A stretch of 35,546 nt of DNA from Candidatus Thorarchaeota archaeon (GTDB taxonomy: Archaea > Asgardarchaeota > Thorarchaeia > Thorarchaeales > Thorarchaeaceae): assembly GCA_003345595.1 (NCBI GenBank), contig PRDI01000077.1:1-35546 (forward strand), given 5' to 3'. The notes under the pieces are model-generated. The model was given only the letters and a program-made list of their open reading frames with translations. It was not told the origin of the DNA and did no database searches. Positions 6,901 to 34,830 of the stretch are shown piece after piece. Position 1 is the stretch's first letter. Each line of letters begins with the position of its first letter. The position numbers and the translations under genes are program-made.

Positions 6901-7251
6901 GCCCTTATGAAGAGCAATCTCGAAGCACTTCATCAGGAGGCGCTTTCCGACCTTCTTGTTGAGCGCATCTGGAGTCACACCAAGCGTTCCGACGTATGCA
7001 GCTTCGGGGTCTCTCCAGTGAGACAGGAGAGTGACAGACCCGATCGGTTTGCTAGTTTGCTTGTCAATCGCGATCAATATGGCAAGCGCTCGCATGGACT
7101 GGTACTGCTTGATTACCCTCTCAGCCGTGAAGGGGACCCCCTGGGTGAATCCATCCGGCCAAAGCGACTCCCAGCTGTTGTACATCTCTGCGAGAGGCTT
7201 TGCAAGTTCGTCGCTATAGTCGCGGATCTCGATCGTCGGTTCGTCTGTCAT
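3931..7251 (-). CDS. Large GNAT N-acetyltransferase-domain protein with long beta-rich C-terminal region
   Basis: N-terminal GNAT (YVGTLGVTPDALNKKVGKRLL...NLRAVPLYKKMG) then about 900 aa with Ig-like segments; ATG 7251 preceded by GGAGTGG (track start 7263). Confidence 0.85.
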   Translation of the reverse strand: MTDEPTIEIRDYSDELAKPLAEMYNSWESLWPDGFTQGVPFTAERVIKQYQSMRALAILIAIDKQTSKPIGSVTLLSHWRDPEAAYVGTLGVTPDALNKKVGKRLLMKCFEIALHKGYARVDLSTWAGNLRAVPLYKKMGLMWNPEGQGVQMESYVPGILRHPLCAPFFATNPDPAAWYTLQRRDVAQAPDDTTEHGMAVYVYNFESGKNNLHVLVDRLARSITGIERVMHDGRLVVRAQVSQHLTLCGIPSVYELRIENGTARDMDFAAALEGLPGLHFDGVSEARTRVKAKKSFTLAVPFSLSPDAPLYRRNIKTPSVVAKLRLNGQESILRTGLRIKPVVDIQTKWKECRVLPSGTVTIPITLVNNSTMTLKGKLMFEEVGPHISMTPPESEFELAPEGLGGAVITVTTQPDLPAGTHDLWAYMIISYLDEAGKRREVKTGRSRISLFCLQGGRVTAGEDDRTREVLLVAPQYTARILREGAILRLSTLYGSSITQMALSTEIGPPFGLSPFRFTERDVRVRETESGLVVSATATHPERPLVIEDRWVALNSSPVLKHEVWVTNTGQESHEMQVRLNGREGGIPLNFDRVFVPLPAGVVEAPTGNLLMSYPSIPSELGSLTEEWVATGGPSGASGQVWKATNLESVYLAAGQLSRIVSKPLRLKGKETKCISEVWNIAAASDWRDIQRIWKANVKGEFENIQKAGMRRPTLPMIAVSKKTVIIPHRQSAEAELTVENTVSAPVIGNVEVESPEGWDADIRRLGGSALTAEQGTDESKETVIQGLQKYILTLKPTDLRKVGFSVERGLVRVRTPMEFREYFTLLQLGSAGSAVTVTEGMEQGIRVFRVNNGVAEFAVSADYGGCLFSLKNSHSTELLCSSFPKPAPKLFMDNYYGGVQPLVWDDSSGEDFFQVKTNREKMDVRPCEHGGVWKGVEVSWTSQIQQTIRGVQYRLQYLAAPESPMVLVNWVIKNPTEAPLFFIPCLFADPGFNGVFGGSIVHTRWGGSEVDLRNVPVPAAVTPETNSLWLRRSGTQESNEGLGILWAGLDPGSIAVCTNEMAACISMDFRCWLMPGDERVVRACLFVNPPNFEALEKVQATLTELF

Positions 7252-7398
7252 AAAACAGTCCACTCCTGACTTGGCCGCGTGAACCTACCCACACATTATC
7301 CTATTGGTCTGGGTACTGCCTGCATGGAAAGCGGTCGCCCGAATATTACATCCAAACAAGAGTTTTCTTACGCGGGGAGTGGTAAGGCAGGTGATTTG

Positions 7399-10392
7399 AT
7401 GACCGGGCTGTGGGATGAAACCTCGTTTGCGTATCGGTTCATTCGTCACCTTGTTGTCATCGTTTCCGTTTCGTTTGTGGTGTACCTTGCGAGCGTTCAG
7501 GCTTGGGAGTCTTATGAGATAAGCGTGGGTTACCGCGCAGTGCTGGCTTTCCTCACGATCGAGTGTGCGTCAGCATCACTGTTCCAATCACGAGAAGACT
7601 CATCACCCATACCAGTGCTCTTCGTTTCGTTCTTCGTGTTTTCGTCTATAGACAGTATGATCGGTTCAGCGGAACAGCTGTTCAGTGCGTCTTCACCACT
7701 GGGCCTTCAGTCTGCCGCCCGGACAGCATCTGATCTTGCAGTGCTCAGTATCTTGGGCGTCCTGCTTCTCATCACGTCCTCTCTCAACCATCGGCTGGCC
7801 GACAAGCGAAAGCCGACACTCTACCGAATCACGGTGTCGATATTGATACTGTGTCTTGCAGTTCAGGGTGTGATTCAGTATATCATTCTGGCCATGTCAT
7901 GGGCAGTGATGGTCAGCGGGTTTGTATTTGGACTGGTTGCTTTGGTCACGCTGACAGTTTCCGGTGTGCAATTGAGCAAGGTGGTCCATTATCCCCATCA
8001 GACTGACAGGGTTCGGCTTCTTCTCGGGCCGGTTGTGTTGGGTCTGTCGGCAATACCTTTGCTCTTCTCCTTGATCTGGCCGAGCGCAGTCTGGACAATG
8101 TCCATGACGCTGCAGCTGGCGGGATTCTTCCTTCTTTACTTGGCTCAGGCCATGCCGATGCTGAGAAGCACATCCCTAGGTCGAGCAAAGTCGTACGCTG
8201 TAGCGTTTACAGTGTCGATGCTGGTCATTGCCCCGCTTTTGGTCACTGTCGCCGCCAAAGTGGTGATGCCCACTTTCCATTTGGTGGACTTCGGAGCCTA
8301 CACATTATCACACGTTGGTATATCCGCATTATCGAGTGTAATGGCATTCCTCGTTTTCTCATATTCAAGGCGAAAACCAGACAAGAGATACTTTCCTTTG
8401 ATTCTTATGTTTGCGATACAGGCCCTTGTTGAAATGGGCCAAATCGGAATCGGCCAGCTTTCGGGTGTTGGCGAGACCGCGTCGTTCGTAGCCTACATAG
8501 TGGGGAGTGTGGTCGTTTCAATCGGTCTATTGTTGGTTATAGGATGGGCTGGCCAGCCACAGGACAATGAGAGTAGACTGGGGGTTTGGCTTCTGAAGGG
8601 TTTCGGCGTAGTGTTCGTTATTAGCTTGATTGGCCAGTCAATAGCATTCCTACTAGTTACATCTATTTCCGATATGGCATCAAGTCCCTTGGGTCAAGTC
8701 ATCCTGCTATCAGTGAATCTTGGCAATGTCTTTGGATACACGTATCTCTGTTTTCTGCTTCTCAAATCCTCACAAGGCACATTCACGGTTGAACTGACAG
8801 CTGTCACGTTTCTCGCTCTATGGATTGCTCCAAACATTCTCAGGTCTGTCTTCAACGAATGGTCAGCTGGGTGGTGGTCGGCAGAAGTGCTTCTTCTCCT
8901 TGGGCTATTAGCAGGTCCTGCCTTTCTTGGGACTCTCTATATGGGATCATATCTGCGTGCTGAGACCTCTCAGAAGAGAGCCACTCTCTATGCCGACATC
9001 TTGGTGCATGACATCGGCAACTATCATCAGGCCATTCTGAGCGCACTGGAACTTCTCGACATGAAAGGTGTGCCGCCTGAAGTCGAGGAGAACGCAAGGG
9101 CAGGAGCACTCGATGCGCTCGCCCGAGCCTCGGAACTGACCGGGAGTGTTAGACAGCTTGCTAGGGCTGACGCAGCGAAGAGTGAACAGCTGGTGCCGGT
9201 CGACCTGGCTGCATGCATCACCGATGCTGTCAGGCAAGTGGCGGTGAGAACGCCTGAGATCGATGCACATATTCGTTTTGAAAGTGAAGAACACTACTAC
9301 GTAGACGCGAACAGCCTATTGATCGATTTGTTCCTCAATCTCTTCCATAACGCTATTCAGTACTCTCCTAGTGAGAAGAGAATCGATGTCGAAGTATCAT
9401 CCATTGTCTTTCGTGGGAGGAACCATTGGGAGGTTCGGGTGGTAGACCGTGGAGCAGGGATTGCCCCTGAGCAAAAGAAGAAGCTCTTCAGCAGATTCAT
9501 GGAGGGAGCTCGGGGAACAGGACTTGGCCTTTCTCTCGTTCGCACATTGACGGACGCATTTGGCGGCGATATCTTGGTCGAAGACAGGGTCGTTGGTGAT
9601 TTCACGAAGGGTACTGTGTTTGTCGTGCGCCTACCAGTTTCTGTGACATCAAAGTTCCTGAAGACCAGATTGAAGGGAGGATTGGAGAGGGCGATTCACG
9701 CTGCGTTGACAGGTCTCTACCCGATTGTGGTCATCGGCAGCCAAGCAGAAGTACGATTCACTATCGACATGCTCAGAATCTATGCAGCTCACCGAACAGA
9801 CCTACGAGCGTGCTACGACATTACCAGCTCGGAATGTCAGATAGGAACATGTGATATTGAAGGGATGCCGGGAGGGTCATCAAGAGGTCTTCCCTCGCAC
9901 TACGTTGTTGTGGACTTCACAAGCCAGAGTGTGACCGGGGGAGCTTCATGCAGGGCATGCATGGATTTCCTTGAGAGAACGAGTTCTCTGCCGGCGAACG
10001 ATTTGAGGAAAGTGGCACTTGAGCAGGTAAGTCAAGTTCTTGGGAATGCTAATGAGCTGGCTCGCATCCTGTCAGAAGAAGAACCATCTCGGTCGAGTGA
10101 CTTGGCAGCGTGGAAGACGCGACTGAGCCCCGAGTCAAGGGAGGTGGCTCTGGATGTTCTTCAGGGCCAATCAGGTCTTGGTCGCTTTCTCAGAGAGGCT
10201 GGGATGGTGTGTCCGCCCTCAGTACTGGCAGGCTATGATAAGCAGCTAATTGTCGTGGGCGACAGGGTCCTTCCTACTGGTAGGCCGAGTCAGGATGATA
10301 TGAGTGAAATACTGAAACGAATGGCGGCGGCAGTCAAGGACTTGGTTGGGTCCGAAGTATATGCATCGATTGAATCAAAGAGTGGGATTTAG
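7399..10392 (+). CDS. Polytopic membrane sensor histidine kinase with extra C-terminal domain
   Basis: Many TM segments; H-box HDIGNYHQ, N-box NLFHNAIQY, G1 DRGAGI, G2 GTGLGL; about 240 further residues; ATG 7399 after GGTGA (track start 7279). Confidence 0.9.
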   Translation: MTGLWDETSFAYRFIRHLVVIVSVSFVVYLASVQAWESYEISVGYRAVLAFLTIECASASLFQSREDSSPIPVLFVSFFVFSSIDSMIGSAEQLFSASSPLGLQSAARTASDLAVLSILGVLLLITSSLNHRLADKRKPTLYRITVSILILCLAVQGVIQYIILAMSWAVMVSGFVFGLVALVTLTVSGVQLSKVVHYPHQTDRVRLLLGPVVLGLSAIPLLFSLIWPSAVWTMSMTLQLAGFFLLYLAQAMPMLRSTSLGRAKSYAVAFTVSMLVIAPLLVTVAAKVVMPTFHLVDFGAYTLSHVGISALSSVMAFLVFSYSRRKPDKRYFPLILMFAIQALVEMGQIGIGQLSGVGETASFVAYIVGSVVVSIGLLLVIGWAGQPQDNESRLGVWLLKGFGVVFVISLIGQSIAFLLVTSISDMASSPLGQVILLSVNLGNVFGYTYLCFLLLKSSQGTFTVELTAVTFLALWIAPNILRSVFNEWSAGWWSAEVLLLLGLLAGPAFLGTLYMGSYLRAETSQKRATLYADILVHDIGNYHQAILSALELLDMKGVPPEVEENARAGALDALARASELTGSVRQLARADAAKSEQLVPVDLAACITDAVRQVAVRTPEIDAHIRFESEEHYYVDANSLLIDLFLNLFHNAIQYSPSEKRIDVEVSSIVFRGRNHWEVRVVDRGAGIAPEQKKKLFSRFMEGARGTGLGLSLVRTLTDAFGGDILVEDRVVGDFTKGTVFVVRLPVSVTSKFLKTRLKGGLERAIHAALTGLYPIVVIGSQAEVRFTIDMLRIYAAHRTDLRACYDITSSECQIGTCDIEGMPGGSSRGLPSHYVVVDFTSQSVTGGASCRACMDFLERTSSLPANDLRKVALEQVSQVLGNANELARILSEEEPSRSSDLAAWKTRLSPESREVALDVLQGQSGLGRFLREAGMVCPPSVLAGYDKQLIVVGDRVLPTGRPSQDDMSEILKRMAAAVKDLVGSEVYASIESKSGI

Positions 10393-22117: not shown

Positions 22118-23044
22118 GTGCGAGCCCTGCCTTTCATACAGACAAGTGTGTTCATCGACGAACGTTATGCCTTCAGTGGCAATCAATTGGCTACATTCTG
22201 GGATCATATGTTGAACACGCGACTCAGTACTGAAGAGATGCAGGGAATCACCCTTGAGATGCAGCACTCGGAAACCACGTTTGTATTCGAATCCACGCGC
22301 AGTGACTGCGCTTCAAAGGTGCGGATCTTCACACCGGGCAGGGAAATTCCATTCGCTGGACATCCTACATTGGGGACTGCATTTGTCCTCCGATACAAGC
22401 GACTTATCAGCCCGGTCGACAGACGGGTGAGGCTTGAGCTTGGCATCGGCCCGATACCCGTCGACTTCGTCGCGGATGACACCATACGAATGGACCAAGG
22501 CATGCCAAAGTTCACCAAGACTTGGGATGACACGCAGTCGATCGCCGAGGCATTGGGCCTGAAGGACAGTGACATTTCCACAGCCTATCCCATCCAGTAT
22601 GTAAGTACTGGATTCCCTTTCCTGATAGTGCCGCTTCGGTCACTGTCTGCCGTCCGGAGAGCAGCGCCGAATCCCACTCTGATACTTGAAACACTCAATG
22701 GACAGGCATCACAGGAGATAGTGATTTTCAGCGATGAGACTGTCCATCCTGATTCGCACGTCCACGTTCGCATGTTTGCACCCGGGGCGGGAGTACCCGA
22801 AGATCCTGCAACAGGTAGTGCCGCTGGGCCGCTCGGGGCGTACCTAGTAGAGCATCGAGTTCTGGCGAATCTCAGACCCGAGCAGGCAATCGTCATAGAG
22901 CAGGGTCACGAGATGCGTAGGCCGAGCCGTTTGGAAGTGGTGATCACGGGTGACAAGAGCACACACGAAGCATACGTGACTGGAAAGGTCAGGCTTATTG
23001 CCGAGGGGAAGCTATACGTCAGAGACAGTGCTGACAAGGCATGA
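22118..23044 (+). CDS. PhzF family isomerase/epimerase
   Basis: GNQLA, SETTFV, RIFTPGREIPFAGHPTLG, EDPATGSA. Confidence 0.93.
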   Translation: MRALPFIQTSVFIDERYAFSGNQLATFWDHMLNTRLSTEEMQGITLEMQHSETTFVFESTRSDCASKVRIFTPGREIPFAGHPTLGTAFVLRYKRLISPVDRRVRLELGIGPIPVDFVADDTIRMDQGMPKFTKTWDDTQSIAEALGLKDSDISTAYPIQYVSTGFPFLIVPLRSLSAVRRAAPNPTLILETLNGQASQEIVIFSDETVHPDSHVHVRMFAPGAGVPEDPATGSAAGPLGAYLVEHRVLANLRPEQAIVIEQGHEMRRPSRLEVVITGDKSTHEAYVTGKVRLIAEGKLYVRDSADKA

Positions 23045-23084: not shown

Positions 23085-23266
23085 GTAGATACGTAGGCCG
23101 AGAGTGATCACTCACTTGATGACCCGTCAGCAGTTGTTTACCTCTGCTATGGGATAGCCGCTGCCAGACCCATCGATGGTGGAGTATATGGCACCATCAC
23201 CGCCCTGCCACGGGCCCCACCAGACCTTCGCTGTCTTCTGGAAGGAGGTGTAGATGTAGCCTGAGC
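23085..23266 (-). repeat. Repeat R4: degenerate terminal copy of the cassette repeat with no tip attached
   Basis: SGYIYTSFQKTAKVWWGPWQGGDGAIYSTIDGSGSGYPIAEVNNC*RVIK*VITLG; two in-frame stops. Confidence 0.9.
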
Positions 23267-23538
23267 CCCGTGAGCAGGATGGGTCGGCGAGTAACACGAA
23301 GAGAAGCCCCGTCATTGCCGCTGCCTGCTTCATACTATCCTGGCAGCATACGGTCCGGACTTGTTCCAGCTGTCGAGAATCACTGCATGAGCCTCCCGAG
23401 CAGAACCTATCCACCTGCTTCAGGCATACAGAGTACAGTATGGGACCTGAGAACTCGCCATGGTGCCTCACTTCCTGTATTAACGTGGTTGATCGCATCT
23501 CGGGAAGAAAGAGAACCATTGATGACACTGAGCCTGCG

Positions 23539-24225
23539 TCACCAACCTGTGGCAATCCCCCATGAAACGAGCATCACCAGCGCAAGAAGAAGAGCCTGGA
23601 CCGCCAAGAGCGGCCTGAGGGCCTGCTTTTCCGGCTTCTCTGATGCTCTGCCCTGGGCAAGTGAACCATCCAGCAGGCCAACTGTGTCATCGACAATGCG
23701 GCCAAGTTCGTCCTTACGCGTTCTCAGCCGCTCTAAGACTGCAGCAGATTCACGGTTGCAGTCAAACCTTGCTCTCCTCCACACGATTTCAATGAGATGA
23801 TTGGTCACGTTTCGCTTGAGAGTTCCTGATCGAAGATGCCTCACAAGGTCTCTCTCTATGCGCCTGTCCATATACCCGATCGACCACTTTCCTATCTTAG
23901 AGGCATCAAACAGGACGAGTAATACTGTGCTCAACGGAACGCCCAGAAGCCATATGACGTATAGGATGCGTGACATCTGAGTCACCAGTTGGAAACCCAA
24001 GTCGAATGTTAGGGATTCGAGGACTAGAAGCAAGAAAGGGAGGACTGACCACGCAGCCAAGGCATACATCAAATCAAGTGCCTTTCCTGAGAAGAGGACT
24101 TCCCGCAGCTTGGCGCCATCCGGGCGTACCCGGGGCAGTAGTGCCGCGAAGGATAAGAACCCAGCCCAAGTCAGGGCAATTACAGCCGTTGCTGTAAATG
24201 CGTCAGTCCACGTCATGCTTATCAA
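23539..24225 (-). CDS. Membrane protein, putative immunity/partner for tip 3
   Basis: 228 aa, 3 N-terminal TM, soluble helical part and C-terminal TM; starts 3 nt after the tip-3 stop. Confidence 0.7.
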   Translation of the reverse strand: MISMTWTDAFTATAVIALTWAGFLSFAALLPRVRPDGAKLREVLFSGKALDLMYALAAWSVLPFLLLVLESLTFDLGFQLVTQMSRILYVIWLLGVPLSTVLLVLFDASKIGKWSIGYMDRRIERDLVRHLRSGTLKRNVTNHLIEIVWRRARFDCNRESAAVLERLRTRKDELGRIVDDTVGLLDGSLAQGRASEKPEKQALRPLLAVQALLLALVMLVSWGIATGW

Positions 24226-24228
24226 CCT

Positions 24229-25213
24229 CTACTGAAGTGCCATCAATGACCTCTCGTAGAACAAACACCGGCAGTACCAAGTGACGGCGCCGATGATGAA
24301 TTTGATGACTAAGCTAATAGGTATCCACCATCCTCCGAGCTTTGCCAGTGCTTGGATTTTTGTGAGATTCTTTGCAGCGGCCATAAGCTTGTGCACTGCT
24401 GCCAAAACGATCAGGGCCTGGACGACTGTTTCACCCATGAGAGCGACTGCGAAGCCCGCCGTCAATGCTCTTGCTTCGAGAAGCGTGAGAGCACCCGTGT
24501 CCACACTTGACCAGATAAGCGGCAGCCACAGGAACCAAAATAGGACCCACGCAGTGACAAGGACCGCAGTTGCAACTCCGAGTGTAAGGACTCCAAGACT
24601 CAAGGAAGTGTCAATGGCAATCCATGCCAATGTGAGCAATGTCAAATACACTCCAAAGGGACCGCCCAAGTCCAGCAACAAGGCATCGCCTTCCTCCACT
24701 TGCAGCGCCTCTTTCTGACTCTGAGAGAGTCCGTCATCCCAAGGCGTATCGAAGAAGGCAGACTCTACTCTTGTGTCGCCAAGCAAGTCAACAGAGATCT
24801 GCAAGACCATATGGCCTCCGTATTCTGTGAATGCTTCGTAAGCCCCGAGCAATCGGGGCCACAACTGACTCATCCAAGAGAACACAATTGACGCCATCTG
24901 ATCGAGAAGAAGGTCGCGGCGTATCTGTGAACTGGGGCCCAGATTCTCAGGATCACCGAGTGCGCCTTCTGTGCTGCCATCGTACCCGATAGGCTCCTCC
25001 GGGTCAGGCGCCGTGGGGTCATGCCTCGTTAGGTCCGCGACGACGTTGATGTCGTGTACGCGCATGTCGACGAGCGAGTATGTGGAGTACCTCTGTCCGA
25101 CTGTGACCACGTACTTGATCACCCGAGAGCAGTTGTTGACCTCTGCTATGGGATAGCTGCTGCCAGACCCATCGATGCTCGAGTATATGGCCCCATCACT
25201 ACCCTGTCACAGA
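24229..25213 (-). pseudogene. Orphan cassette 3: repeat R3 plus alternative hydrophobic C-terminal tip
   Basis: R3 about 24983-25213 (TGA at the conserved W, then QGSDGAIYSSIDG...HDPTAPDPEE), open to 24229; no signal peptide or N-terminal domains. Confidence 0.85.
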
Positions 25214-25251
25214 GGCTTCAGATTGTTGCGTTGAGTAGCATCGCCTAGAAT

Positions 25252-25689
25252 TCACGACTCTTGAGCGCTCCTACTGATTGGACCCGACTCTTGATGAGGC
25301 TGAGAGGAACGATTAGTGACTGCCTTGTATGTAATCCATGCGGCATAGCATAGACTGACCACTGTCATGCTGCCGGTTGCGCCGTCGAGAAATACACTGA
25401 CCACGCCTGTCCACGTCCCGGCGGTCCAGCCGACAAATGGGAGCACCACGGAGCCAGTCAGCATCATAGCTTGCAGGAGTCTCGCACGAGAGGGGTTCGC
25501 AGCGACCCACTTTGCCATTGAGTTCATGTGCCTGAAAGTCACTTCCCGTCCGGCCGCCTTCGTAATTCTGGCAATGGTAATCATATCCTCCACGAAGAAG
25601 ACAAACAGAAGGAATACCAGTGCCACAGACAAGGCACTCACAGCCAAGATTATATTCAACACGCAGTCCAATCGCACTCACAACTCCAT
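25252..25689 (-). CDS. Membrane protein, putative immunity/partner for tip 2 (early TGA, or restart at GTG 25677)
   Basis: GGAGAACACT ATG GAG TTG TGA GTG CGA..., followed by a 141-aa three-TM ORF 25252-25677. Confidence 0.65.
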
Positions 25690-25779
25690 AGTGTTCTCCC
25701 AGACCCCTGAGTATGACTGGGGACGATTGCATCTTACGGACCATTCTCGCAGGCAGTGCATCACTTGACATCAGTCTCC

Positions 25780-26832
25780 TCAGAACGATTTCACTAGATG
25801 GTCATACGCTACGACGAAGCACCATATTGAGATTCCTAATAGAACGCAGAGGGCCACTTTCGAACTCAAGAATATGCCTGAGGGTCCCTTGACTTCTGCT
25901 GCTGCTTCCTCGAGCTCCTGAGCTGGATTGGGCCCATACAGAAGATTCCTGATAGTCACTAAGACGCTGAAACCCAGCGCGTTAAGTAGGGTCAGGGCTC
26001 CCCAGAATATGTAGAAGCAGCAAGCATCGAATTCGGTCCAGGCCCCTTTTGCAATCATGCTATTCGAGTATGTTGTCATCTCGTAGATCAGGAGCCCAAT
26101 CGAAGTTGCAAGACAGACCGTCGCGGCGACAAGTGCAGGTATACATCCGGACTCGGCGGCGATCTCAAAAGCATAGGCACTCAACCGGATGTCAATATTG
26201 ATGAGACCTATGATGATGTTGTAGGCGATTGACCTGATTGGATCGCTGGGCTGCAGAAACGAACCGTCTCCAGAAGTCGTTACGTCAAGAATCTCGACAT
26301 ATCCGAGAATGTTCTTCGCCACGTGAACAAGTAGGGTGAGGCCAGCCATGGCAAAGGCGGGGTGTCCTGCTGGAACATTCGAGGGCACAAGCTGGAGGGA
26401 GTATTGATAGTGCAAGAGAGGCCACGGTCCGGTCCAGTATGGGTCCACGACGTCCATTGCCTGAGCCGCTTCCTGATCTGCTCTTGCTCTGTCATACGCT
26501 GGAGGAGTACGTGTCCCATCATAATCTACAGGGTCCTCCGGGTCAGGCGCAGGGGGGTCATGCCTCGTCAGGTCAGCGACCAAGTTTACATCATGGATGC
26601 GCATGTCGACCAGCGTGTATGAGTTGGACCTCTGTCCGACTGTGACCACGTACTTGATGATGCGTGAGCAGTTGTTGACCTCCGCTATGGGATAACCACT
26701 TCCAGACCCATCGATGGTCGACCAAATGGCCCCAGCACCGCCCTGCCACGGGTCCCACCAGATTCTCGCTGTGTTCTTGAAGTTGGCCTGCATGTAGCCT
26801 GAGGTCTGAGAGTAGGACGCGCCATCGCACAT
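25780..26832 (-). CDS. Orphan cassette 2: repeat R2 plus alternative hydrophobic C-terminal tip
   Basis: 350-aa ORF; first about 100 aa near-identical to the matching part of 29800-32985 (R2 about 26530-26826), rest divergent; ATG preceded by AGGAACC. Confidence 0.85.
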   Translation of the reverse strand: MCDGASYSQTSGYMQANFKNTARIWWDPWQGGAGAIWSTIDGSGSGYPIAEVNNCSRIIKYVVTVGQRSNSYTLVDMRIHDVNLVADLTRHDPPAPDPEDPVDYDGTRTPPAYDRARADQEAAQAMDVVDPYWTGPWPLLHYQYSLQLVPSNVPAGHPAFAMAGLTLLVHVAKNILGYVEILDVTTSGDGSFLQPSDPIRSIAYNIIIGLINIDIRLSAYAFEIAAESGCIPALVAATVCLATSIGLLIYEMTTYSNSMIAKGAWTEFDACCFYIFWGALTLLNALGFSVLVTIRNLLYGPNPAQELEEAAAEVKGPSGIFLSSKVALCVLLGISIWCFVVAYDHLVKSF

Positions 26833-26869
26833 GGTTCCTGATTCCAGACGGTCACCTTTGTAGCAGCTG

Positions 26870-27418
26870 TCAATCCTCCTGTTCTTGCCCTGGCTGTAGC
26901 CGTTCTAAGGCGTCCCTGAACGCTTGTCCGACCTCGTCGTCGCGGGACAGGAGCCTCTGCTTTGCGTGCATGTACTCCTTCACCACTACATCGTCAGGAT
27001 CCAGCTTTCTGATCTTGTCCAGTAGCGTTGAAAGCATCCCATCCAAATGCCCGTTTCTGTAATTGTGTTCAATAGTAAGTTCTAAGATCTCGCCGGGCTC
27101 CACGTCCTTTCGTCCTGTTGTTTTAAATCGCCGCCCCAGCACTACGAACGTGAATGCAGGAGCAAACATCAGAACGACCAACACCACACCAACCTCAGGA
27201 TGCGCTGCTTGAATCCACAACATGGGAAGAACCCAGAAAAGAAGCACCAGGAGCATGGCTTCGTATGCCGCAGTGGCCCTTCGACGCGTACCGAAGACTC
27301 TGTGTCCTACGTTGCGCAGAGTGGACGGCCCTCTGTTTCGAGAAGTCAGCCAGTCTACAAAAGCGAACAACAGGACTATGCCGGCACTCGCGATTGCCGC
27401 TAATCCGAATGTATCCAC
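26870..27418 (-). CDS. Membrane protein, putative immunity/partner for tip 1
   Basis: 182 aa, 3 TM plus soluble helical C-terminus; 13 nt after the tip-1 stop. Confidence 0.7.
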   Translation of the reverse strand: MDTFGLAAIASAGIVLLFAFVDWLTSRNRGPSTLRNVGHRVFGTRRRATAAYEAMLLVLLFWVLPMLWIQAAHPEVGVVLVVLMFAPAFTFVVLGRRFKTTGRKDVEPGEILELTIEHNYRNGHLDGMLSTLLDKIRKLDPDDVVVKEYMHAKQRLLSRDDEVGQAFRDALERLQPGQEQED

Positions 27419-27431
27419 GATTCAAGGCCTC

Positions 27432-28606
27432 CTAGGTGCTCCAACCCATAGCAAGGTAGTATCCAACATACCATGCACAGGTCAACATGACGGCCATCTT
27501 GATAAAGGCCACTGCAAAGAACCAGATGCCTCTGTTGAATCCAGCTGGGGCTATCGGGAAGGGCTTACAGGCTTTGTAGAGCCTGTACATGAGCCAGCCC
27601 GCCGCAAGATCAGGACCTACGCCCGGGAATAGTAGCATAATCAGACTCAGGAAAGCGGCGGCCGCACCGTATGGATGCATCACATTGTTTTCCACTGCCC
27701 ATTGGATAAATGCCACATACGCTAAGAACAGGACGGTCCATGCGCCCAACATCGCCAAGAGAACCCAAATGCTGGTAAGCATAGCAAGCGGACTGGCAAG
27801 ATTCTCGATTAGCATCAGCCCATACTTCAATGCGAAAGCCAAACCCACTGGCGCCACGAATTTGACTAGGAATTCGGCCCACCCACTGTCCATCTGTTGA
27901 GCCACTGCGCCCATCTCTTCTTCTGTACCCTCGGCCTCTATGCTTGACGCAATGGACAAAGTATGCACCTGAATATCTCCCAGGATATCGACGGAGATCA
28001 GCACATTGAATACGGTCTCGATCACGTCAACGAGTTCTAGGAACAAGCGGGGCCAGAAGTTCACTAGAGCCCAGTATGCCTCCAGGGAAACACTCAGCAA
28101 GCTGAGCGTCTGTTCTCCCTCTTCCTGACCACACTCAGGAGTGGGAGCGGTTCCATCGCTCTCCTCCGGGTCGGGTGCTGTCGGATTGTGCCTTGTCAAG
28201 TCAGCAGCAGCGTTGATGTCATGTACGCGCATGTCGACCAGCGTGTATGAGGAGTACCTCTGCCCGACTGTGACCACGTACTTGATGATGCGTGAGCAGT
28301 TGTTTACTTCTGCTATGGGATAGCCGCTGCCAGAGCTGTCAATGGTCGAGTATATGGCGCCAGCACCTCCCGGCCACGGGTCCCACCAGATCTTCGCTGT
28401 CTTCTTGAAGTTCGTGTAGATGTTGCCTGAGGTCTGAGAGTAGGACGCGCCATTCTGGAAGTAGTACAAGTTGAATCAGCCCCTCTGACTGCCCACCCAA
28501 GCGTCGCCTAGTGCATGAGCAACACGCACTGCTTGTTCTCGTCGAACAGCCCATTGTAGGCTCTTCCCATGGTTGAACTGCACTGCACGAGCTCTCCAAT
28601 CACCGA
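27432..28606 (-). pseudogene. Orphan cassette 1: repeat R1 plus alternative hydrophobic C-terminal tip
   Basis: Open frame 27432-28469; upstream 28470-28606 is a disrupted copy (SVIGELVQCSSTMGRAYNGLFDENKQCVLLMH*) of the main gene; 28227-28304 is identical to 30535-30612. Confidence 0.88.
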
Positions 28607-28614
28607 GGACTCGC

Positions 28615-29019
28615 TCAACCGGCAGAATCGGCAGTTTCCTGAGGAACTGCCCGACTAACGACCAAGCTGGCTATCATCAGAAGGACTGGAACTAGAGGGA
28701 ACCACGCGAGCACATGCATGAACACGGAGAGCATCCCAGAACCCCATAGTGGTATGTCTGACAGCACCGCAGCCAGCGAGATCATCACTGCTGCCCATAC
28801 GACGGTCACGACCGCAAAGGAATCAGGTGCGCCCCGGCTGAGTACGCCGCGAGGCGCACCTGTTGGTCTGCCATCATGCGACCTGAGAGATCCATTATGT
28901 GCTAATATGACGTCACTGAACAGGCGATGGAATCCTATGATGAACGCGAGGTTCGCAAGGATATTAGCCCACGCAAAGATCTCAGTTACCAGTTCGAGTT
29001 GCCACATAGCCACACCCAC
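28615..29019 (-). CDS. Three-TM membrane protein, putative immunity/partner for the truncated tip
   Basis: 134 aa, three hydrophobic segments; 4 nt after the stop at 29024. Confidence 0.65.
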   Translation of the reverse strand: MGVAMWQLELVTEIFAWANILANLAFIIGFHRLFSDVILAHNGSLRSHDGRPTGAPRGVLSRGAPDSFAVVTVVWAAVMISLAAVLSDIPLWGSGMLSVFMHVLAWFPLVPVLLMIASLVVSRAVPQETADSAG

Positions 29020-29023
29020 CTAT

Positions 29024-29350
29024 TCAGAACAGACCCATGCCCAGCATGAATCCGTAAACGATGATAGCAAATCCCACGATCATTTGAATTACCCCGGAAA
29101 CCACGAATCCAACGACTAAGTAGTCCACCGTGGCCCATGGAACGCACCCAGCTGCTAGCACAAATGCATGATAGGCCGCCGATTCCACAAAGGCCATGTT
29201 CAATATTGCGTAAGCAGTGGCATCCATATGGAACCTGAACGCCTCAGGCAAAGCGTCTACCGCCCTATCGACTCATCTATCAATCCAAGCACCTCACCCT
29301 TGGTCCTTGATGCAGTGAAGGCCACAAGGCCCCTAGTGGCTCGAAGCATC
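29024..29350 (-). pseudogene. Truncated hydrophobic tip fragment lacking the repeat
   Basis: 75-aa hydrophobic ORF end (29024-29251) in the tip position between two partner genes; upstream frame is broken. Confidence 0.5.
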
Positions 29351-29354
29351 GCGT

Positions 29355-29762
29355 CTAATTCCCTTTATTGTCGGTAGGACGATCTTGCGGTTCATGTAGC
29401 AGCGCATACTCTTTCAGTGGGCCCTCAGAAACCTTTCGACGAGTCGCCATGACTCCTGCAAGGGCGGTCAGTAGCATCCCGACTGAAACCCCGACCAACA
29501 GAACAACGAAGTCCAGCTGTGGAAATGTGCCCGCCCATCTAGCAGCAGCCAAAAGGATAAGAAAGCACACTACCCCAACGCTGCACCCTAAGCCAGAGAA
29601 CCACAAAACCCACCATTGCTCTTCGTCCGCCATCATGCTCCACGGCTTTTTCCGTGTGCCAATCGCCTCGTAAGCCAGTAAGTAAACCGAGAGGACTGAG
29701 ACTGACCATGACGCAACCAGAAGCAGTAACGAGAGCACCAGAGGATCCATCACTTCTTGCAC
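29355..29762 (-). CDS. Three-TM membrane protein, putative cognate immunity/partner of the full-length protein
   Basis: 135 aa, three TM, directly downstream of 29800; alternative ATG at 29750. Confidence 0.7.
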   Translation of the reverse strand: MQEVMDPLVLSLLLLVASWSVSVLSVYLLAYEAIGTRKKPWSMMADEEQWWVLWFSGLGCSVGVVCFLILLAAARWAGTFPQLDFVVLLVGVSVGMLLTALAGVMATRRKVSEGPLKEYALLHEPQDRPTDNKGN

Positions 29763-29799
29763 TGGGCTTCACCTTCCAAACTTCAGACTGTATGTTGAT

Positions 29800-32700
29800 T
29801 CATGGAACGAAGCGCGTATAGAGAGCAGCCGTGACTAGCGCAAAGCAGGCTATGCATTTAAACACGAAGAGAATCCAGCCACCAGGCAGGATACTCAGTA
29901 GCGCCTCTGTGACATCTTTGCCGGCCAGGATACTGCCGAGTATCACATAGCCGAACGTCAGACAGAATGCCCCGAAGCAGAACACTAGACCAGTGAGCAG
30001 CAAGACCCAGAATCTGAACCAGGGGTCAAAGCCGCTATTCCTTAGAGATGCTTCCAGTATCGTGATAGAGTAGGTGTACAAGATCATCCAGTCGAATCCC
30101 AGAGCAACAGCGAATGGAATCCAGCCCGGATTAGAGTTGGATGCGAAACAGGCTGATGCCCAAAACAATTCGATTAAGTACAGGCCTGCCATTACGACTA
30201 GGTTGTCAATGATCAACTGCATAGCAGCGTTGACGATAGCCGAGTTGTCCAGTGTCTGAATGCTGTTGCCCATGTCGTCAGTAGCAGCGAGCGTTTCGAG
30301 TGTTCTAGAGCCCAGCAGGTCTGACTTTACTTGAACCACCAGTGACGATCCGCTCGGGTGGTACTTCTCCACTCTGGTGTGCAGTTCAGGCCAAGGTATG
30401 GTCCACCAGCTATTCACATGCTGAACCCAGTCCGCGTCGGGCGGATCTGCCGTCTGGCCCACGCCTAGGTCAGTCCCGTCATATATCGCGGGGTCGTGTG
30501 TCGTCACGTCAGCGACAACATTGACGTCATGGATGCGCATGTCGACCAGCGTGTATGAGGAGTACCTCTGCCCGACTGTGACCACGTACTTGATGATGCG
30601 TGAGCAGTTGTTGACCTCTGCTATGGGATATCCGCTGCCAGACCCATCGATGGTCGACCATATGGCGCCGTCACCGCCCTGCCACGGGTCCCACCAGATC
30701 TTCGCCGTCTTCTGGAAGTTGGTGTAGATGTAGCCAGAGGCTTGAGAGTAGGACGCGCCGTCCTCAAAGTAGTACAGGTTGAACCACCCCTTCTGGCTCC
30801 CATACCAGGCGTCGCCCCAGTAGACAAGCATCACACACTCTTTGTTTTCGTCGAACAGCCCCACGTAGGCTTGGCCCATGGTGTAGCTGCTCTGCACGAG
30901 CTCGCCGATAACAGAGAAATCGCTCAGCTGGTAAAGCCTGAACGGCCTGTCCAGCACATGCACGTACTGCGGTCCATGCCAACCTGATATCCCGGACACT
31001 ATCGAGGTCCACTTCATGTAGCTCTGTCCGGATGGGACCTCAAGAACACCCTCCGAAGGAGGGCCATAGGGGAACGTCAGGTCCTTCTGGAACTCATACA
31101 TGTCGTTGCATGCGTCGTGGAACACCGTGTAGTCCGAGTAGGCGTAGCTCAACCTAAGGGAGTAGATTCTTTCATCATGCTCGTTGAGGGAGCCGTAACG
31201 GTAGCTCTGGATCGCCACATACTTGATTATTCTGTTAGTATTGATCTGCGTATAGCAGTAGAGCCAAAGTTCATCCTTTCCCGGAACGTCTGCAAACAGT
31301 CCTTGCAGGGGATCGAACCTTATCTGCACAACTCCAGATACGTCACCAGTGAGCAGGTTCGATTGAAGAGACTTGCTAGTCCCGTCCTCGTTGTAGTAGC
31401 ATGCAGTGAAGACCGTGGCCGCAGTGTCTGTCCAGGAGTCAGCAACATAGAGTAGCACTGCTAGCTTCTTGTTTGAGTCGTACAATGCTACGAACGTCAC
31501 ACCCACCCGTGAGGCTTGGCCACTGTGCACAAGCGAAAGGTTTGCTGAAAAGGAACCGAGGTCCTTCATCTTGAAATAAGACGGCAGAGTCATCACGAAC
31601 GACGGACCATGCCAAGAGGTTCCCGTTGGGATGTTCGTAACAGTCAGGTATGTGCCAGTCGAGCCTATTGAACCGGTTGCTTGTGTATATCCCGGAAGAT
31701 TAGGCCAGCTCGAGTCATACTCGTAGTCGGATCTCCCACAAGAGTCGGTCCACAGACCGCCTGTCCTGCCCGGGTTGCGACCCACCACAGGCTCTGACCA
31801 TATGCCGTCCACCTTCTGCCTAGAAACATAGACACCGCCAGCACCTATCTGGTTCAACGATATCGAATCGACAGAGTCGAGGACACTGCCGCTCGCAGTG
31901 ACGTTCACCCAGACCTGAGTGTAGAGCGAGCCGTCTCCGGAATAGACTACGACACCTGAGTACGTGCCACCACAGAACACCAGTGGGCCATACTCCCAGT
32001 GTCCACGAGGTGCTATGTATATGTAGACCTGACTATAGCTTTCCGCGCCCGGAGGAGAAAGAAAGTCCGGACCGCCATCTGGGATCCATGTCGCCTCTTG
32101 ATAGTAGTTCCTCGTGTAGTTCACGGAGAGAGCCATCAGGGTCCTGAGATAGGGTACCCCATAGATGTCGAAATAGACTTTGTAGTAGTCCACTATTAGG
32201 TCTCTGAGGTCCAGAGGCAGTGCATTGAACCCGTCGGGCCCGGAGAGCTGTACCCATGTGGAGGACCTGAGGACCATGTACTCATCTGTATAGGTGTCAG
32301 AGTAGTGAGCATCTACGTACTCGATCTCGTCAAGAATCACCTGTTCGAAGTCCATGATGTGCACGCTGCAACCTGACTGAACGAGTTCCTTTGCCGTGGT
32401 CAGTTCTGTCGTCCTGTACTGCTCGACCATCTGGGAATTGATGCCGAGCGCAAGCATGACCGCTGAGGCAATCTCGACGTTGGTCACCTCCGCAGGTCTG
32501 ACACCAGGAACTGTGTAGAGTTTCTTCGCTGACTCCTCAATCCCATAACTGATGAGCCTTCTACTCTCACACGCTGCAAACAGGTGAAGGGTCGCTTTCG
32601 AGTCCTCGACTATCCCCGCCATCGCTTTCCATGAAGTGAGACGCGATCCAGTGACTATGCCTTGTGGTCCCCCGTGGGACATGTATATCACGACTGAAGC

Positions 32701-32985
32701 ATCCAGAGACTTCGCCGCACTTGGGTCACAGGTCTTGATCAGAATCAACCTGTCCACGAAGAATGGATCATCTGTTATGAATGAGGACAGTCTTCCCATC
32801 AGTTCTTGTGTAGCCCAGTCAGTGTCTGTATCGCCTGACAGCTGAAGAATGACGACGGTCGGGCCTGCATTTGCAGCATCAGCTTGCCACGCAGTTGAGG
32901 CGACAAGCTGAATCCCAAGAATCGTTGCTACACTTACTGCACACAGAATCACGATTGCTCGTGCTGAACGAACAGCTAGTTTCAT
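29800..32985 (-). CDS. Large exported multidomain protein, putative polymorphic toxin/recognition protein (caspase/CHAT-like domain, two tandem beta-rich domains, variable hydrophobic tip)
   Basis: 1061 aa; N-terminal basic plus hydrophobic signal/anchor; VVIYMSHG (H104) and LFAACES (C139); internal duplication WHGP...RIIKYV; 4-5 hydrophobic helices at the C-terminus; segment 30490-30915 repeated downstream. Confidence 0.8.
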   Translation of the reverse strand: MKLAVRSARAIVILCAVSVATILGIQLVASTAWQADAANAGPTVVILQLSGDTDTDWATQELMGRLSSFITDDPFFVDRLILIKTCDPSAAKSLDASVVIYMSHGGPQGIVTGSRLTSWKAMAGIVEDSKATLHLFAACESRRLISYGIEESAKKLYTVPGVRPAEVTNVEIASAVMLALGINSQMVEQYRTTELTTAKELVQSGCSVHIMDFEQVILDEIEYVDAHYSDTYTDEYMVLRSSTWVQLSGPDGFNALPLDLRDLIVDYYKVYFDIYGVPYLRTLMALSVNYTRNYYQEATWIPDGGPDFLSPPGAESYSQVYIYIAPRGHWEYGPLVFCGGTYSGVVVYSGDGSLYTQVWVNVTASGSVLDSVDSISLNQIGAGGVYVSRQKVDGIWSEPVVGRNPGRTGGLWTDSCGRSDYEYDSSWPNLPGYTQATGSIGSTGTYLTVTNIPTGTSWHGPSFVMTLPSYFKMKDLGSFSANLSLVHSGQASRVGVTFVALYDSNKKLAVLLYVADSWTDTAATVFTACYYNEDGTSKSLQSNLLTGDVSGVVQIRFDPLQGLFADVPGKDELWLYCYTQINTNRIIKYVAIQSYRYGSLNEHDERIYSLRLSYAYSDYTVFHDACNDMYEFQKDLTFPYGPPSEGVLEVPSGQSYMKWTSIVSGISGWHGPQYVHVLDRPFRLYQLSDFSVIGELVQSSYTMGQAYVGLFDENKECVMLVYWGDAWYGSQKGWFNLYYFEDGASYSQASGYIYTNFQKTAKIWWDPWQGGDGAIWSTIDGSGSGYPIAEVNNCSRIIKYVVTVGQRYSSYTLVDMRIHDVNVVADVTTHDPAIYDGTDLGVGQTADPPDADWVQHVNSWWTIPWPELHTRVEKYHPSGSSLVVQVKSDLLGSRTLETLAATDDMGNSIQTLDNSAIVNAAMQLIIDNLVVMAGLYLIELFWASACFASNSNPGWIPFAVALGFDWMILYTYSITILEASLRNSGFDPWFRFWVLLLTGLVFCFGAFCLTFGYVILGSILAGKDVTEALLSILPGGWILFVFKCIACFALVTAALYTRFVP
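30490..30915 (-). repeat. Repeat R0: master copy of the cassette repeat
   Basis: Partial copies at about 28165-28606, 26530-26826, 24983-25213 and 23085-23266, all in the same orientation. Confidence 0.95.
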
Positions 32986-33459
32986 TTACCCTACCCCGGT
33001 TGCGGCTCCGCGCAGACCTCCCTGCCTCCGGGCCCCACAGCCAACTGAGAACGATTGTGCACGCCGGGGATATAAGGAACGGGACATCGGGAGTGCCTGC
33101 TAATGGCCACTTGAGGCCTGCATGGCCGATTTCCTTGGCAATCTTTTCCCGACTATCAGAATTCGTTAGAGCCGGGGCATAGGAAGGTAATTTTCCCATC
33201 TAAAAAGTTAACAAACGGACAGGGGGCAGGCTGGTATCCACAAGACGCTCAGAATGCCACTACGGTGCGCCTGGAGAGCACAGTGGGCTCGAATGGTTGA
33301 TGCATTGTCAATTGAGATACCACCGACCATGAGAGTGATTTGGCGCAGATTCTGCTTCTGAGGGTCGAAGAGAGGCAAGCCAAGAAGTCCGGTTGAGATA
33401 GGGGCTTTGGCACTAGGTTCTTTGTCAAGCCCCTATCTGAGGAGCTATGAGGGCAGGGC

Positions 33460-34830
33460 TCAGGTCGTCGCCTGTACCTTTGTGGTTTCGGCTTTCTTCG
33501 CCTTCAGAGCGTCGAAGTCAGGGTCGATGTTGATATACAGTAGGATGATTGCCGCTATGCCGAGGAAAGGCGCGAAGATCGGACCCCACAGCATGAGTCC
33601 TAGAGTGTTGAAACCTGTCGTTGCCACTGAGTAGTCCATGACTAATCCAAGCAGCAGAGCCGAGCCAGCCTGGAACAGGTTGAGAGGTACGCCAATGAAA
33701 CCAGTGTACATCCCGGAGCGGCTCTGCCCTGTCAGAAGCTCATCCGCCTGTGCGATGTCAGCCGGAACAATATAGGACATCAGGTAGTAGACCGCCATAC
33801 ATGCAGCCAGAGGAATGAAGAACATGATGGCCACAACCACGTTCGGAATGGCAGGTATCAAGCGGGAGATGAAAGCCGTCGCGGGCAGCAGGAAACCCAG
33901 AATCAGCATCGAGCCGATCATGGCTTTTCCCTTGCCAATCTTCTTGATCAGCTTGACCCAAAGATAGAGGAAGACCATTATTGACGCCAGTAGAGTAATG
34001 GCCGGGGGCAGCAGGAGGTCAAGGGTTTTGAGTAGCAGCACTTCTTGCGAGAAGCCCAGTATCTGAGCAGTGATGGCTGAAAATGAGAACGACAAGAAAC
34101 CGACGGCAAACATCCAGCCAACATAGGTACGATTCCTCAGGACTGTCATGGTTTCGGCGACAACGCTTCTCTTGGGGATTACTATGTCGGGCCTCTCATG
34201 GATCCAGATTATCGAAGGCAGATAGAACAGAACAGTGATAATCGAAATAGCAAGGACGAATATCAGACCGAAGTATCTCAGACCCGGCGGATCTGGAGGC
34301 TTGTTGAATAGCAGAGTCGTCATCAAGCCTGCCACAATGCCCAGTCCGTTTGCAATCCAGTTGGCTGTATTCTGCATGCTTGAAACCAAGGGTCGCTCAT
34401 CCTCGTCAGTGATCTCGGGCAGCCAGGCCTGGAACGCAGTCAGCAAAAAAGCGTAGAAGAACTTGAATGAACAAAGGCTTGTGACGTAATAGGCAAAGAC
34501 TAGCATCTCAAGTGCTGGATTCGTCGTGTCCAGGAACCAATTCGGGACAAACAGGAGAAAACCTGTTATAGCTAGACCCGGAGCTCCGACGATCACAAAG
34601 GGCTTCCTTCGACCCCATCGAGTATGAACCCTATCGCTCCAGTAACCAGTGAGCCAGTGGGTCAGGCCAATGACTACGTATGAGAGTGCAAGGGCAACTC
34701 CTGCAAGGAGCCAGTTTAGTTCAAAAAAGGTCCCGTAGATCCAGAAGGAAGTTAGGCCTGTCAAGGTCAGAAGGAAGGACGACCCGAACCGACCCATTCC
34801 ATAAGCAACCTTCTTGTAAAACGGCAGCAT
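33460..34830 (-). CDS. MFS transporter, GPH/MelB-like (MFS_2)
   Basis: KKVAYGMG, GYWSDRVHTRWGRRKPF, ADIAQADELLTGQSRSGMYTG; about 12 TM. Confidence 0.9.
   Translation of the reverse strand: MLPFYKKVAYGMGRFGSSFLLTLTGLTSFWIYGTFFELNWLLAGVALALSYVVIGLTHWLTGYWSDRVHTRWGRRKPFVIVGAPGLAITGFLLFVPNWFLDTTNPALEMLVFAYYVTSLCSFKFFYAFLLTAFQAWLPEITDEDERPLVSSMQNTANWIANGLGIVAGLMTTLLFNKPPDPPGLRYFGLIFVLAISIITVLFYLPSIIWIHERPDIVIPKRSVVAETMTVLRNRTYVGWMFAVGFLSFSFSAITAQILGFSQEVLLLKTLDLLLPPAITLLASIMVFLYLWVKLIKKIGKGKAMIGSMLILGFLLPATAFISRLIPAIPNVVVAIMFFIPLAACMAVYYLMSYIVPADIAQADELLTGQSRSGMYTGFIGVPLNLFQAGSALLLGLVMDYSVATTGFNTLGLMLWGPIFAPFLGIAAIILLYINIDPDFDALKAKKAETTKVQATT

Follow-up and report, generated by a model that had tools for sequence, protein, structure and literature searches.

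A cassette array of exchangeable membrane tips and matched partner genes behind a candidate surface protein in Thorarchaeota

The window analyzed here is a stretch of 35,546 nucleotides (nt) of a Candidatus Thorarchaeota archaeon (assembly GCA_003345595.1, contig PRDI01000077.1, positions 1–35,546). Between 23.1 and 33.0 kb it carries a switchable-tip array, in which a full-length gene (the main gene) for a 1061-residue, putatively exported protein is followed by cassettes that each combine a "handle" copied from the main gene's pre-tip region, a distinct hydrophobic tip of four helices and a gene for a small membrane protein, the partner. Each tip goes with its partner as a pair, whether in inheritance, in replacement or in lateral exchange, with recombination at the conserved handle. 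The architecture and the exchange mechanism, which involve previously undescribed families in Asgard archaea, are well supported by the comparisons below. As to function, we put at about 0.5 the probability that this is a polymorphic effector/partner locus, i.e. a toxin/immunity system that acts on membranes and switches cassettes.

Organization of the switchable-tip locus

Open reading frame (ORF) calls and blastn place every element of the array on the minus strand, in the order main gene, partner gene s0, a 75-amino-acid (aa) ORF, the partner-like gene b2, three cassettes and a bare, decayed handle. The array is bounded by a convergent PhzF-like gene (22118–23044, plus strand) and by an MFS transporter gene (33460–34830, minus strand). 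This layout bears out the initial annotation, which had described a main gene, partner genes and three handle-tip-partner units; the 180–440 bp that it gave for the handle copies compares with 182–424 bp measured by blastn. The elements are as follows (R0 denotes the main-gene stretch from which the handles are copied; TM, transmembrane segments; AF2, AlphaFold2; pLDDT, predicted local distance difference test score):

29800–32985, minus: full-length main gene, 1061 aa (ORF and 35 homologues)
32887–32985, minus: hydrophobic N-terminal segment, residues 1–33 (hydropathy scan, conservation among homologues)
32326–32880, minus: predicted caspase-like alpha/beta domain, residues ~36–220 (AF2 model and fold searches)
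31690–32280, minus: beta-sandwich of long strands, residues ~236–432 (AF2, pLDDT 80–94)
31066–31689, minus: beta unit 1, residues 433–640 (32% identical to unit 2)
30490–31065, minus: beta unit 2, residues 641–832, its 3' part being the recombination handle (sequence comparison)
30487–30926, minus: R0, the stretch copied before the orphan tips (blastn, repeat search)
29803–30489, minus: linker and tip 0, residues 833–1061 (AF2 model, conservation)
29355–29762, minus: partner s0, 135 aa, 3 TM, 37 nt past the main gene (ORF, hydropathy)
29024–29251, minus: hydrophobic ORF of 75 aa, perhaps what is left of the final helices of a tip (marginal profile match)
28615–29019, minus: b2, 134 aa, 3 TM, partner-like, without an intact tip (ORF, hydropathy)
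28195–28617, minus: handle 1, 424 bp, 84% identical to R0 (blastn)
27432–28469, minus: orphan 1, the rest of the handle and tip 1 (249 aa past the handle; ORF)
26870–27418, minus: partner p1, 182 aa, 3 TM and a charged tail, 13 nt past tip 1 (ORF, hydropathy)
26554–26826, minus: handle 2, 273 bp, 88% identical to R0 (blastn)
25780–26832, minus: orphan 2, handle and tip 2 (257 aa; ORF)
25252–25677, minus: candidate partner p2, 141 aa, hydrophobic (assigned on its likeness to the other partners rather than on homology)
25012–25210, minus: handle 3, 199 bp, 84% identical to R0 (blastn)
24229–25122, minus: orphan 3, short handle and tip 3 (261 aa; ORF)
23539–24225, minus: partner p3, 228 aa, 3–4 TM, 3 nt past tip 3 (ORF, hydropathy)
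23098–23279, minus: terminal bare handle, 182 bp, 86% identical to R0, tipless and with in-frame stops (blastn, translation)

Handle matches between the main gene and the array reach E-values of 1e-57 to 1e-129 in blastn, far beyond chance, and the array is thus real. Handles 1–3 stop no more than 16 nt apart on the main gene (30487–30503, residue ~832), and exact runs of 17–78 nt that are common to the handles could support homologous recombination. The terminal handle contains in-frame TGA stops and is followed by no tip, in agreement with the bare, decayed repeat that had been reported to end the array; the stops in decayed handles across relatives are a mixture of TGA, TAG and TAA. The same terminal handle is 94% identical to one in a related genome (G001; L046:4729–5180) that still heads an intact cassette.

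The array is tightly packed, with intergenic gaps of 3–100 nt, and no run of five or more T residues occurs on the coding strand across its ~10 kb, the sole such run lying upstream of the main gene (33202–33206). These features are compatible, as a weak inference, with transcription of the partners by read-through.

Two stretches of the array are less clear-cut. The initial annotation had seen a broken tip plus a three-TM gene upstream of handle 1; the three-TM gene, b2, stands, while the broken tip at 29024–29251 is unproven, as this ORF had no BLAST match to the 50 tips of the cassette set described below and only a 4.6-bit, hydrophobicity-driven profile score. At 25252–25771, the 141-aa hydrophobic frame listed as p2 overlaps a Cys-rich, non-membrane ORF of 152 aa (25313–25771), which is a rival call for this partner; neither frame had a detectable homologue among the cassettes examined.

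Replacement and lateral exchange of tip/partner pairs

Handles were located by profile in 36 loci from 12 related genomes. Together with the window, this set comprises 64 handle copies, 50 of which, from 11 genomes, are followed by a tip and a downstream ORF that are both complete. All 50 tips are linked into one divergent superfamily (740 of 1225 pairs at E<1e-3), so that the array's tips are indeed different, as first described, but not unrelated. Their partners fall into 33 clusters, with 30 of 1225 pairs homologous. For the co-variation test any ORF within 800 nt downstream of a tip was taken, with no choosing among candidates. The downstream gene was homologous in 16 of the 23 pairs with similar tips (at least 150 bits), as compared to 38 of 835 pairs in the lowest bin of tip similarity; when only pairs between genomes were considered, the corresponding counts were 14 of 21 and 32 of 750. 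In a Mantel test, 3 of 2000 permutations equaled or exceeded the observed value.

The body of the main protein does not follow its tip. Among 24 full-length homologues, identity over the N-terminal 430 residues and identity in the tip were nearly uncorrelated (rho 0.15). Homologues P0005 and P0008 are 92–100% identical over their first ~650 residues and 68–90% identical up to residue ~1050, while their tips share 16–22% identity and cannot be aligned. Likewise, P0024 and P0025 are 66–96% identical up to residue ~1000 and 12–26% identical thereafter, the handle ending at residue 1013. Homologues thus do not always share one tip, and this replacement, with identity breaking at the handle, is what would be expected from the swapping of orphan cassettes onto the full-length gene that had been proposed initially. 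A conserved N-terminus combined with a co-varying tip and downstream gene, which the initial annotation had suggested looking for in Asgard genomes, was confirmed in these related genomes.

Tip types that are carried by a main gene in one genome are found as orphans in others. The tip 0 type and its partner type recur together as an orphan cassette in genome G003 (tip 65%, partner 56% identical), and the tip type of the G022 main gene corresponds to orphans in G018. No full-length scaffold gene was found in G003, which is 88% complete, and its locus may be orphan-only; the orphan cassette lies at 5139–6478 of L049 (G003:C5:82000–97000), with 68% nt identity, equal to background divergence.

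A more recent event is apparent between the source genome (G000) and G001, which belong to the same genus. Their housekeeping flanks are 83–86% identical over 13 kb, whereas window positions 27200–28200, comprising tip 1 and the start of p1, are 96–100% identical to G001 at the nt level; tip 1 itself is 98.8% identical in aa and 98% in nt to its counterpart there (L045:4512–5384). One edge of this tract lies in the handle (28200–28300) and the other fades within p1, with a dS of 0.066 for tip 1 versus 0.40 for p1. Past the shared tip 1 cassette, the two genomes carry different tips. The excess of identity in the tract over that in the flanks points to a recent exchange of orphan tip 1 between species.

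Partners outlive tips. The s0 protein is 85% identical to an intact 135-aa homologue in G001, which is encoded by the second gene after a different cassette, and no tip 0-like sequence was found in the G001 assembly. Within the window, b2 is kept without an intact tip, and in other genomes a multi-TM downstream gene is kept in three of six cases of decayed tips.

The system is confined to one lineage. The 35 scaffold homologues include named entries that are all hypothetical proteins of Candidatus Thorarchaeota or Promethearchaeia/Promethearchaeota metagenome-assembled genomes (MAGs), in line with the Asgard host initially inferred from the DNA. A profile of handle plus tip matched 28 of 76 genomes of the source's family and none of the 224 genomes searched from 29 other families in the phylum. 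Within the family its presence is patchy, with numerous copies in many genomes. A full-text literature search on polymorphic-toxin-like or hypervariable loci of Asgard archaea or Thorarchaeota returned no paper describing such a system.

The scaffold protein, its tips and their partners

The main protein consists of a signal-like N-terminus, a caspase-like domain, a beta-sandwich, two beta units of ~200 aa, a linker and the tip. Residues 1–33 are hydrophobic and conserved among homologues, and we take them as a putative Sec signal peptide or N-terminal anchor. An AF2 model of residues 36–432, built from 29 sequences (mean pLDDT 72), comprised an alpha/beta domain (~36–220) and a beta-sandwich (~236–432). 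With the alpha/beta domain, Foldseek results were dominated by caspases-3, -6, -7 and -8 and by SAVED-CHAT, at probabilities of 0.9–0.99 and E-values of only ~1e-2. In VIA-align, SAVED-CHAT ranked best (Z 9.6–9.9 over 164 residues), and caspases-7, -3 and -8 gave Z-scores of 7.5–8.1, covering 143–164 of ~185 residues. Two dipeptides, His104-Gly105 and Ala138-Cys139, are nearly invariant in the homologues and follow hydrophobic strands E63–67 and E98–102 in the model; a His-Gly and an Ala-Cys, each placed after a hydrophobic strand, are how we take the catalytic pair of clan CD to be laid out. Profile searches with this domain returned no PDB sequence match and only chance-level Pfam matches, and no CHAT family member was found in the source genome. 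We predict residues ~36–220 to be a caspase-like peptidase domain, with about two chances in three of being right. The initial annotation had not recognized the scaffold, which agrees with the lack of known polymorphic-toxin domains in Pfam searches but overlooks this predicted N-terminal domain.

The F-A-A-C-E-S motif around Cys139 (32569–32583, residues ~135–139) presumably recalls legumain/GPI8-type clan CD enzymes, just as the Asp-Gly-Thr before the hydrophobic C-terminus (30475–30483, residues 836–838) would, as we read it, recall a transamidase cleavage site. A role of the caspase-like domain and the Asp-Gly-Thr linker in lipid attachment or transpeptidation is a very speculative extension of these resemblances. 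Residues ~7–176 have weak matches (E 1e-4 to 1e-7) in giant ORFs of 1205–1871 aa in related genomes (G025:C22, G004:C8, G011:C17, G009:C73, G025:C7), and the N-terminal caspase-like domain may on this ground stand at the start of a broader group of large surface proteins.

Fold searches that included the beta-sandwich were dominated by the N-terminal domain. The two beta units are 32% identical to each other (E 1e-23), and homologues carry two to five such units, some with DUF2341 or Glce beta-sandwich inserts; the modular scaffold can be seen in P0006, P0016, P0019, P0020 and P0031. A beta-unit profile gave only marginal matches to Ephrin-receptor ligand-binding domains among PDB sequences (E 0.04–0.09) and chance-level matches in Pfam, and the Atlas feature search yielded a weak lead to a sialidase carbohydrate-binding module (0.91, 128 shared features). 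A lectin/jelly-roll fold of the beta units is thereby hinted at and plausible. The source genome also encodes an 845-aa ORF with a region that is 30% identical to beta unit 1 (G000:C101:9269–9793; E 4e-7), a distant paralogue that matches neither handle nor tip.

Tips measure 229–261 aa from the end of the handle; the hydrophobic tips of the initial annotation are thus real, at a size corrected from ~210–250 aa. A model of residues 641–1061 (54 sequences) was poor for beta unit 2 and confident for residues 851–1061 (pLDDT ~88–96), where tip 0 is predicted to form a small beta-sheet cap (857–910) followed by four hydrophobic helices of 31–38 residues (914–951, 953–983, 988–1021 and 1025–1059). 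The Pro/Asp-rich linker HDP-x-AP-DP-x-EP-xx-Y-DGT is conserved in all tips, which also share the motifs WTG-x-WP-x-LH and DLLG and the conserved residues W861, W865, P866 and L891; the helices are hypervariable. Searches with the tip model in PDB (Foldseek), the ESM Atlas and VIA wide returned only generic helical bundles (Z ≤8 or TM-score ≤0.25), and Pfam gave chance-level matches, none meaningful at E≤0.1, for the nine array proteins.

The window's partners share an architecture, about three N-terminal TM followed by a variable tail, without sharing sequence, and no relatives of the partners were found in Pfam, PDB or the Atlas. Comparison of p1 with its G001 copy (dN/dS 0.19) indicates purifying selection.

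Possible function and relation to known systems

The organization resembles that of CdiA-CT/CdiI, Rhs-CT/RhsI and MafB/MafI loci, bacterial polymorphic toxin systems with orphan modules (Zhang et al. 2012, PMC3482391), as had been noted at the outset, in several respects. An exported, conserved body with a signal-like N-terminus precedes a C-terminus that varies past a fixed boundary motif, with identity dropping sharply at the end of the handle; a small gene directly downstream varies with that C-terminus (the 16 of 23 versus 38 of 835 pairs given above); and silent tip/partner cassettes, three in the window, lie behind a homology handle and are laterally exchanged, and a tip type that is expressed in one genome can be an orphan elsewhere. 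A caspase-like domain, here predicted and N-terminal, is likewise found in many bacterial polymorphic toxins. None of the family-defining features was seen, however. Pfam (E≤0.1, chance-level matches only) found no trafficking module (T5/T6/T7, RHS, PVC and others), leaving the Sec-type N-terminus alone. It also found no FHA repeats, VENN-type boundary or CdiB (the boundary motif is HDP...DGT and the neighbors are PhzF-like and MFS genes), no RHS/YD repeats (the scaffold consists of ~200-aa beta units) and no LXG, Hint, known toxin or known immunity families in the array proteins. The initial annotation had likewise reported no RHS/YD, FHA, LXG or Hint motifs. In contrast to bacterial polymorphic toxins, moreover, the host is an Asgard archaeon without an outer membrane or T5/T6/T7 secretion, and the tips form one membrane-protein superfamily rather than many unrelated enzymatic toxins. 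As every testable family-defining feature is absent, the locus appears to work like the CdiA, Rhs and MafB systems while belonging to none of them.

Membrane-acting effectors with polytopic membrane immunity proteins provide a second comparison; they include pore-forming colicins (Cai/Cei-type immunity), the CdiA-CT of E. coli EC93, Tse4/Tsi4 of type VI secretion (T6SS) and TspA/TsaI of type VII secretion (T7SS). As in these pairs, a hydrophobic helical effector would be matched by a small protein of 3–4 TM, both putatively acting within the membrane, and one effector fold would serve many specificities. Unlike these effectors, to which no sequence or fold match was found, the tip belongs to a Sec-exported, probably membrane-anchored protein. 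The pore domain of colicins is a ten-helix globule; the tip model has four helices and a beta cap, and pore-forming colicins appeared neither in Pfam nor among the fold-search results. In the IdsD/IdsE system of Proteus mirabilis, which is delivered by T6SS, the transferred protein has a variable membrane-spanning region that needs to fit a small membrane protein, itself variable; the tip/partner pair resembles it in this membrane-region matching, with no homology, and we know of no silent cassette array of this kind for IdsD/IdsE.

Among published archaeal loci, the nearest analogue is VARTIG of Thermococcales (Makarova et al. 2021), a large secreted protein with a recombination-driven hypervariable C-terminal immunoglobulin (Ig) domain and variable downstream genes, polymorphic-toxin-like in organization and of unknown function, for which its authors' Ig-centered searches found no counterpart in other archaea (PMC8416519). 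The present system shares with it an archaeal, lineage-restricted distribution and a large secreted protein with a hypervariable C-terminus and variable downstream genes. It differs in that variability falls on a helical membrane module, paired with a single small membrane protein, rather than on an Ig domain, in its ordered silent cassettes with handles, and in occurring in Thorarchaeota, not Thermococcales. Pfam detected no Ig or CARDB domains in the array proteins.

Under the toxin/immunity reading, the main protein would be exported via its N-terminal signal-like segment, so that the caspase-like domain, the beta-sandwich and the two beta units would be displayed outside the cell, with the beta cap and four-helix module lodged in the membrane. 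The small three-TM protein encoded downstream would be the cognate partner, which binds and neutralizes the tip within the membrane. On cell contact, the tip would enter the membrane of a neighbor that lacks the matching partner and damage it, and the caspase-like domain may, speculatively, first free the tip by cutting the conserved Asp-Gly of the linker. The downstream cassettes would represent silent alternative tip/partner pairs. Homologous recombination between the 180–420-bp handle of a cassette and the main gene's pre-tip region would exchange the expressed tip along with its partner, and cassettes also pass from one species to another. Roles in toxicity, protection and recognition are what we infer for tip and partner by analogy. 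We favor this reading because partners persist without tips, because silent arrays and single tips that spread laterally are what antagonistic arms races typically produce, and because caspase-like releasing peptidases are frequent in polymorphic toxins (PMC3482391).

Several observations weigh against it. A Sec-made, C-terminal module of four hydrophobic helices should insert in the producer's own membrane, and delivery is the main weakness of the toxin/immunity reading: we know of no route for the tip into another cell. No known toxin fold or delivery machinery was found among Pfam, PDB and Atlas matches, and all tips have a single fold, as opposed to the many unrelated toxin folds of classical polymorphic toxins. 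The caspase-like match is moderate (Z 7.5–9.9), with unrelated flavodoxin-like and periplasmic-binding folds also at Z ~8, and the domain is N-terminal and does not adjoin the tip. Finally, the tipless s0 copy in G001 has a dN/dS of 0.57, so that selection on it is not strong.

The delivery problem and the single tip fold keep viable a second account, to which we give distinctly less credence, namely that of non-lethal self or kin recognition, in which a complex of tip and partner in the membrane would signal "same identity" between touching cells, possibly for adhesion, fusion, mating or cooperation. One tip fold with diversifying pairing partners is a lock-and-key pattern; the tip is expected to remain in the producer's membrane beside its partner; the ectodomain is made of adhesin-type beta units, two to five per protein; and the lack of a toxin fold among Pfam, PDB and Atlas matches would be natural. 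The same role has been argued for VARTIG, as hypothesis (iii) (PMC8416519). Such recognition would also resemble that by Proteus IdsD/IdsE, with its specificity set by variable regions that span the membrane. The retention of partners without tips nevertheless suits protection better, extensive silent arrays and laterally spreading individual tips are typical of an arms race, and no signaling output domain was seen.

It is unlikely that the four helices are just a variable membrane anchor of a surface adhesin or enzyme, with the small protein as an insertion or stabilizing subunit and diversity due to drift, to hitch-hiking or to escape from viruses for which the protein serves as receptor. 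A hydrophobic C-terminus, the absence of a toxin signature and the patchy restriction of the system to one family would suit an anchor. Drift, however, leaves unexplained both the ordered silent cassettes with conserved handles and the sharp breakpoints at one position, and it does not fit a 1-kb tract that is 98% identical between species differing by ~15% or the purifying selection on tips (dN/dS 0.08–0.20). Virus evasion should vary the exposed part of the protein; because the variable part is the one buried in the membrane, we reject virus-driven antigenic variation as a main explanation. Least probable by far is an assembly artefact, in which paralogues or co-occurring strains would have been fused at the repeated handle. 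The source is a MAG of 129 contigs (2.73 Mb, 83% complete), the longest exact run common to handles is 78 nt and many related arrays lie at contig ends, but the present array is located inside a 35.5-kb contig with ordinary genes on both sides, and two other contigs, of 232 kb and 32 kb, also hold comparable arrays in their interior. In addition, the handle copies are only 84–88% identical, the order tip 1, p1, next handle recurs in an independent genome, and the downstream edge of the high-identity tract falls within a unique gene rather than a repeat.

Leaving open whether the outcome is killing or recognition, we consider it somewhat better than an even bet that the locus is an Asgard-specific system of contact-dependent antagonism or allorecognition, independent of bacterial systems, in which a four-helix module and its small partner are switched by cassettes and traded between species. 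The interactions of Asgard archaea with neighboring cells are almost unknown and bear on models in which eukaryotes originated from close cell partnerships; a surface protein that is specific to the lineage and has a membrane module that can be switched, along with partners to match, offers a testable entry. If this view is correct, the locus would be the first contact-dependent antagonism or allorecognition system to be described among the prokaryotes closest to eukaryotes and would introduce a novel family of effector/partner pairs acting on membranes. In archaea, classical polymorphic toxin systems are rare and apparently borrowed from bacteria (PMC3482391). The Thorarchaeota locus would instead be an independent invention with new folds, and the genetic logic would be convergent.

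Elsewhere in the window, two unusual large fusion genes lie head to head. An ORF of 1110 aa (3931–7263, minus strand) combines an N-terminal GNAT acetyltransferase domain with a FixG_C Ig-like domain, and an ORF at 7279–10392 (plus strand) encodes a HATPase_c protein of 1037 aa.

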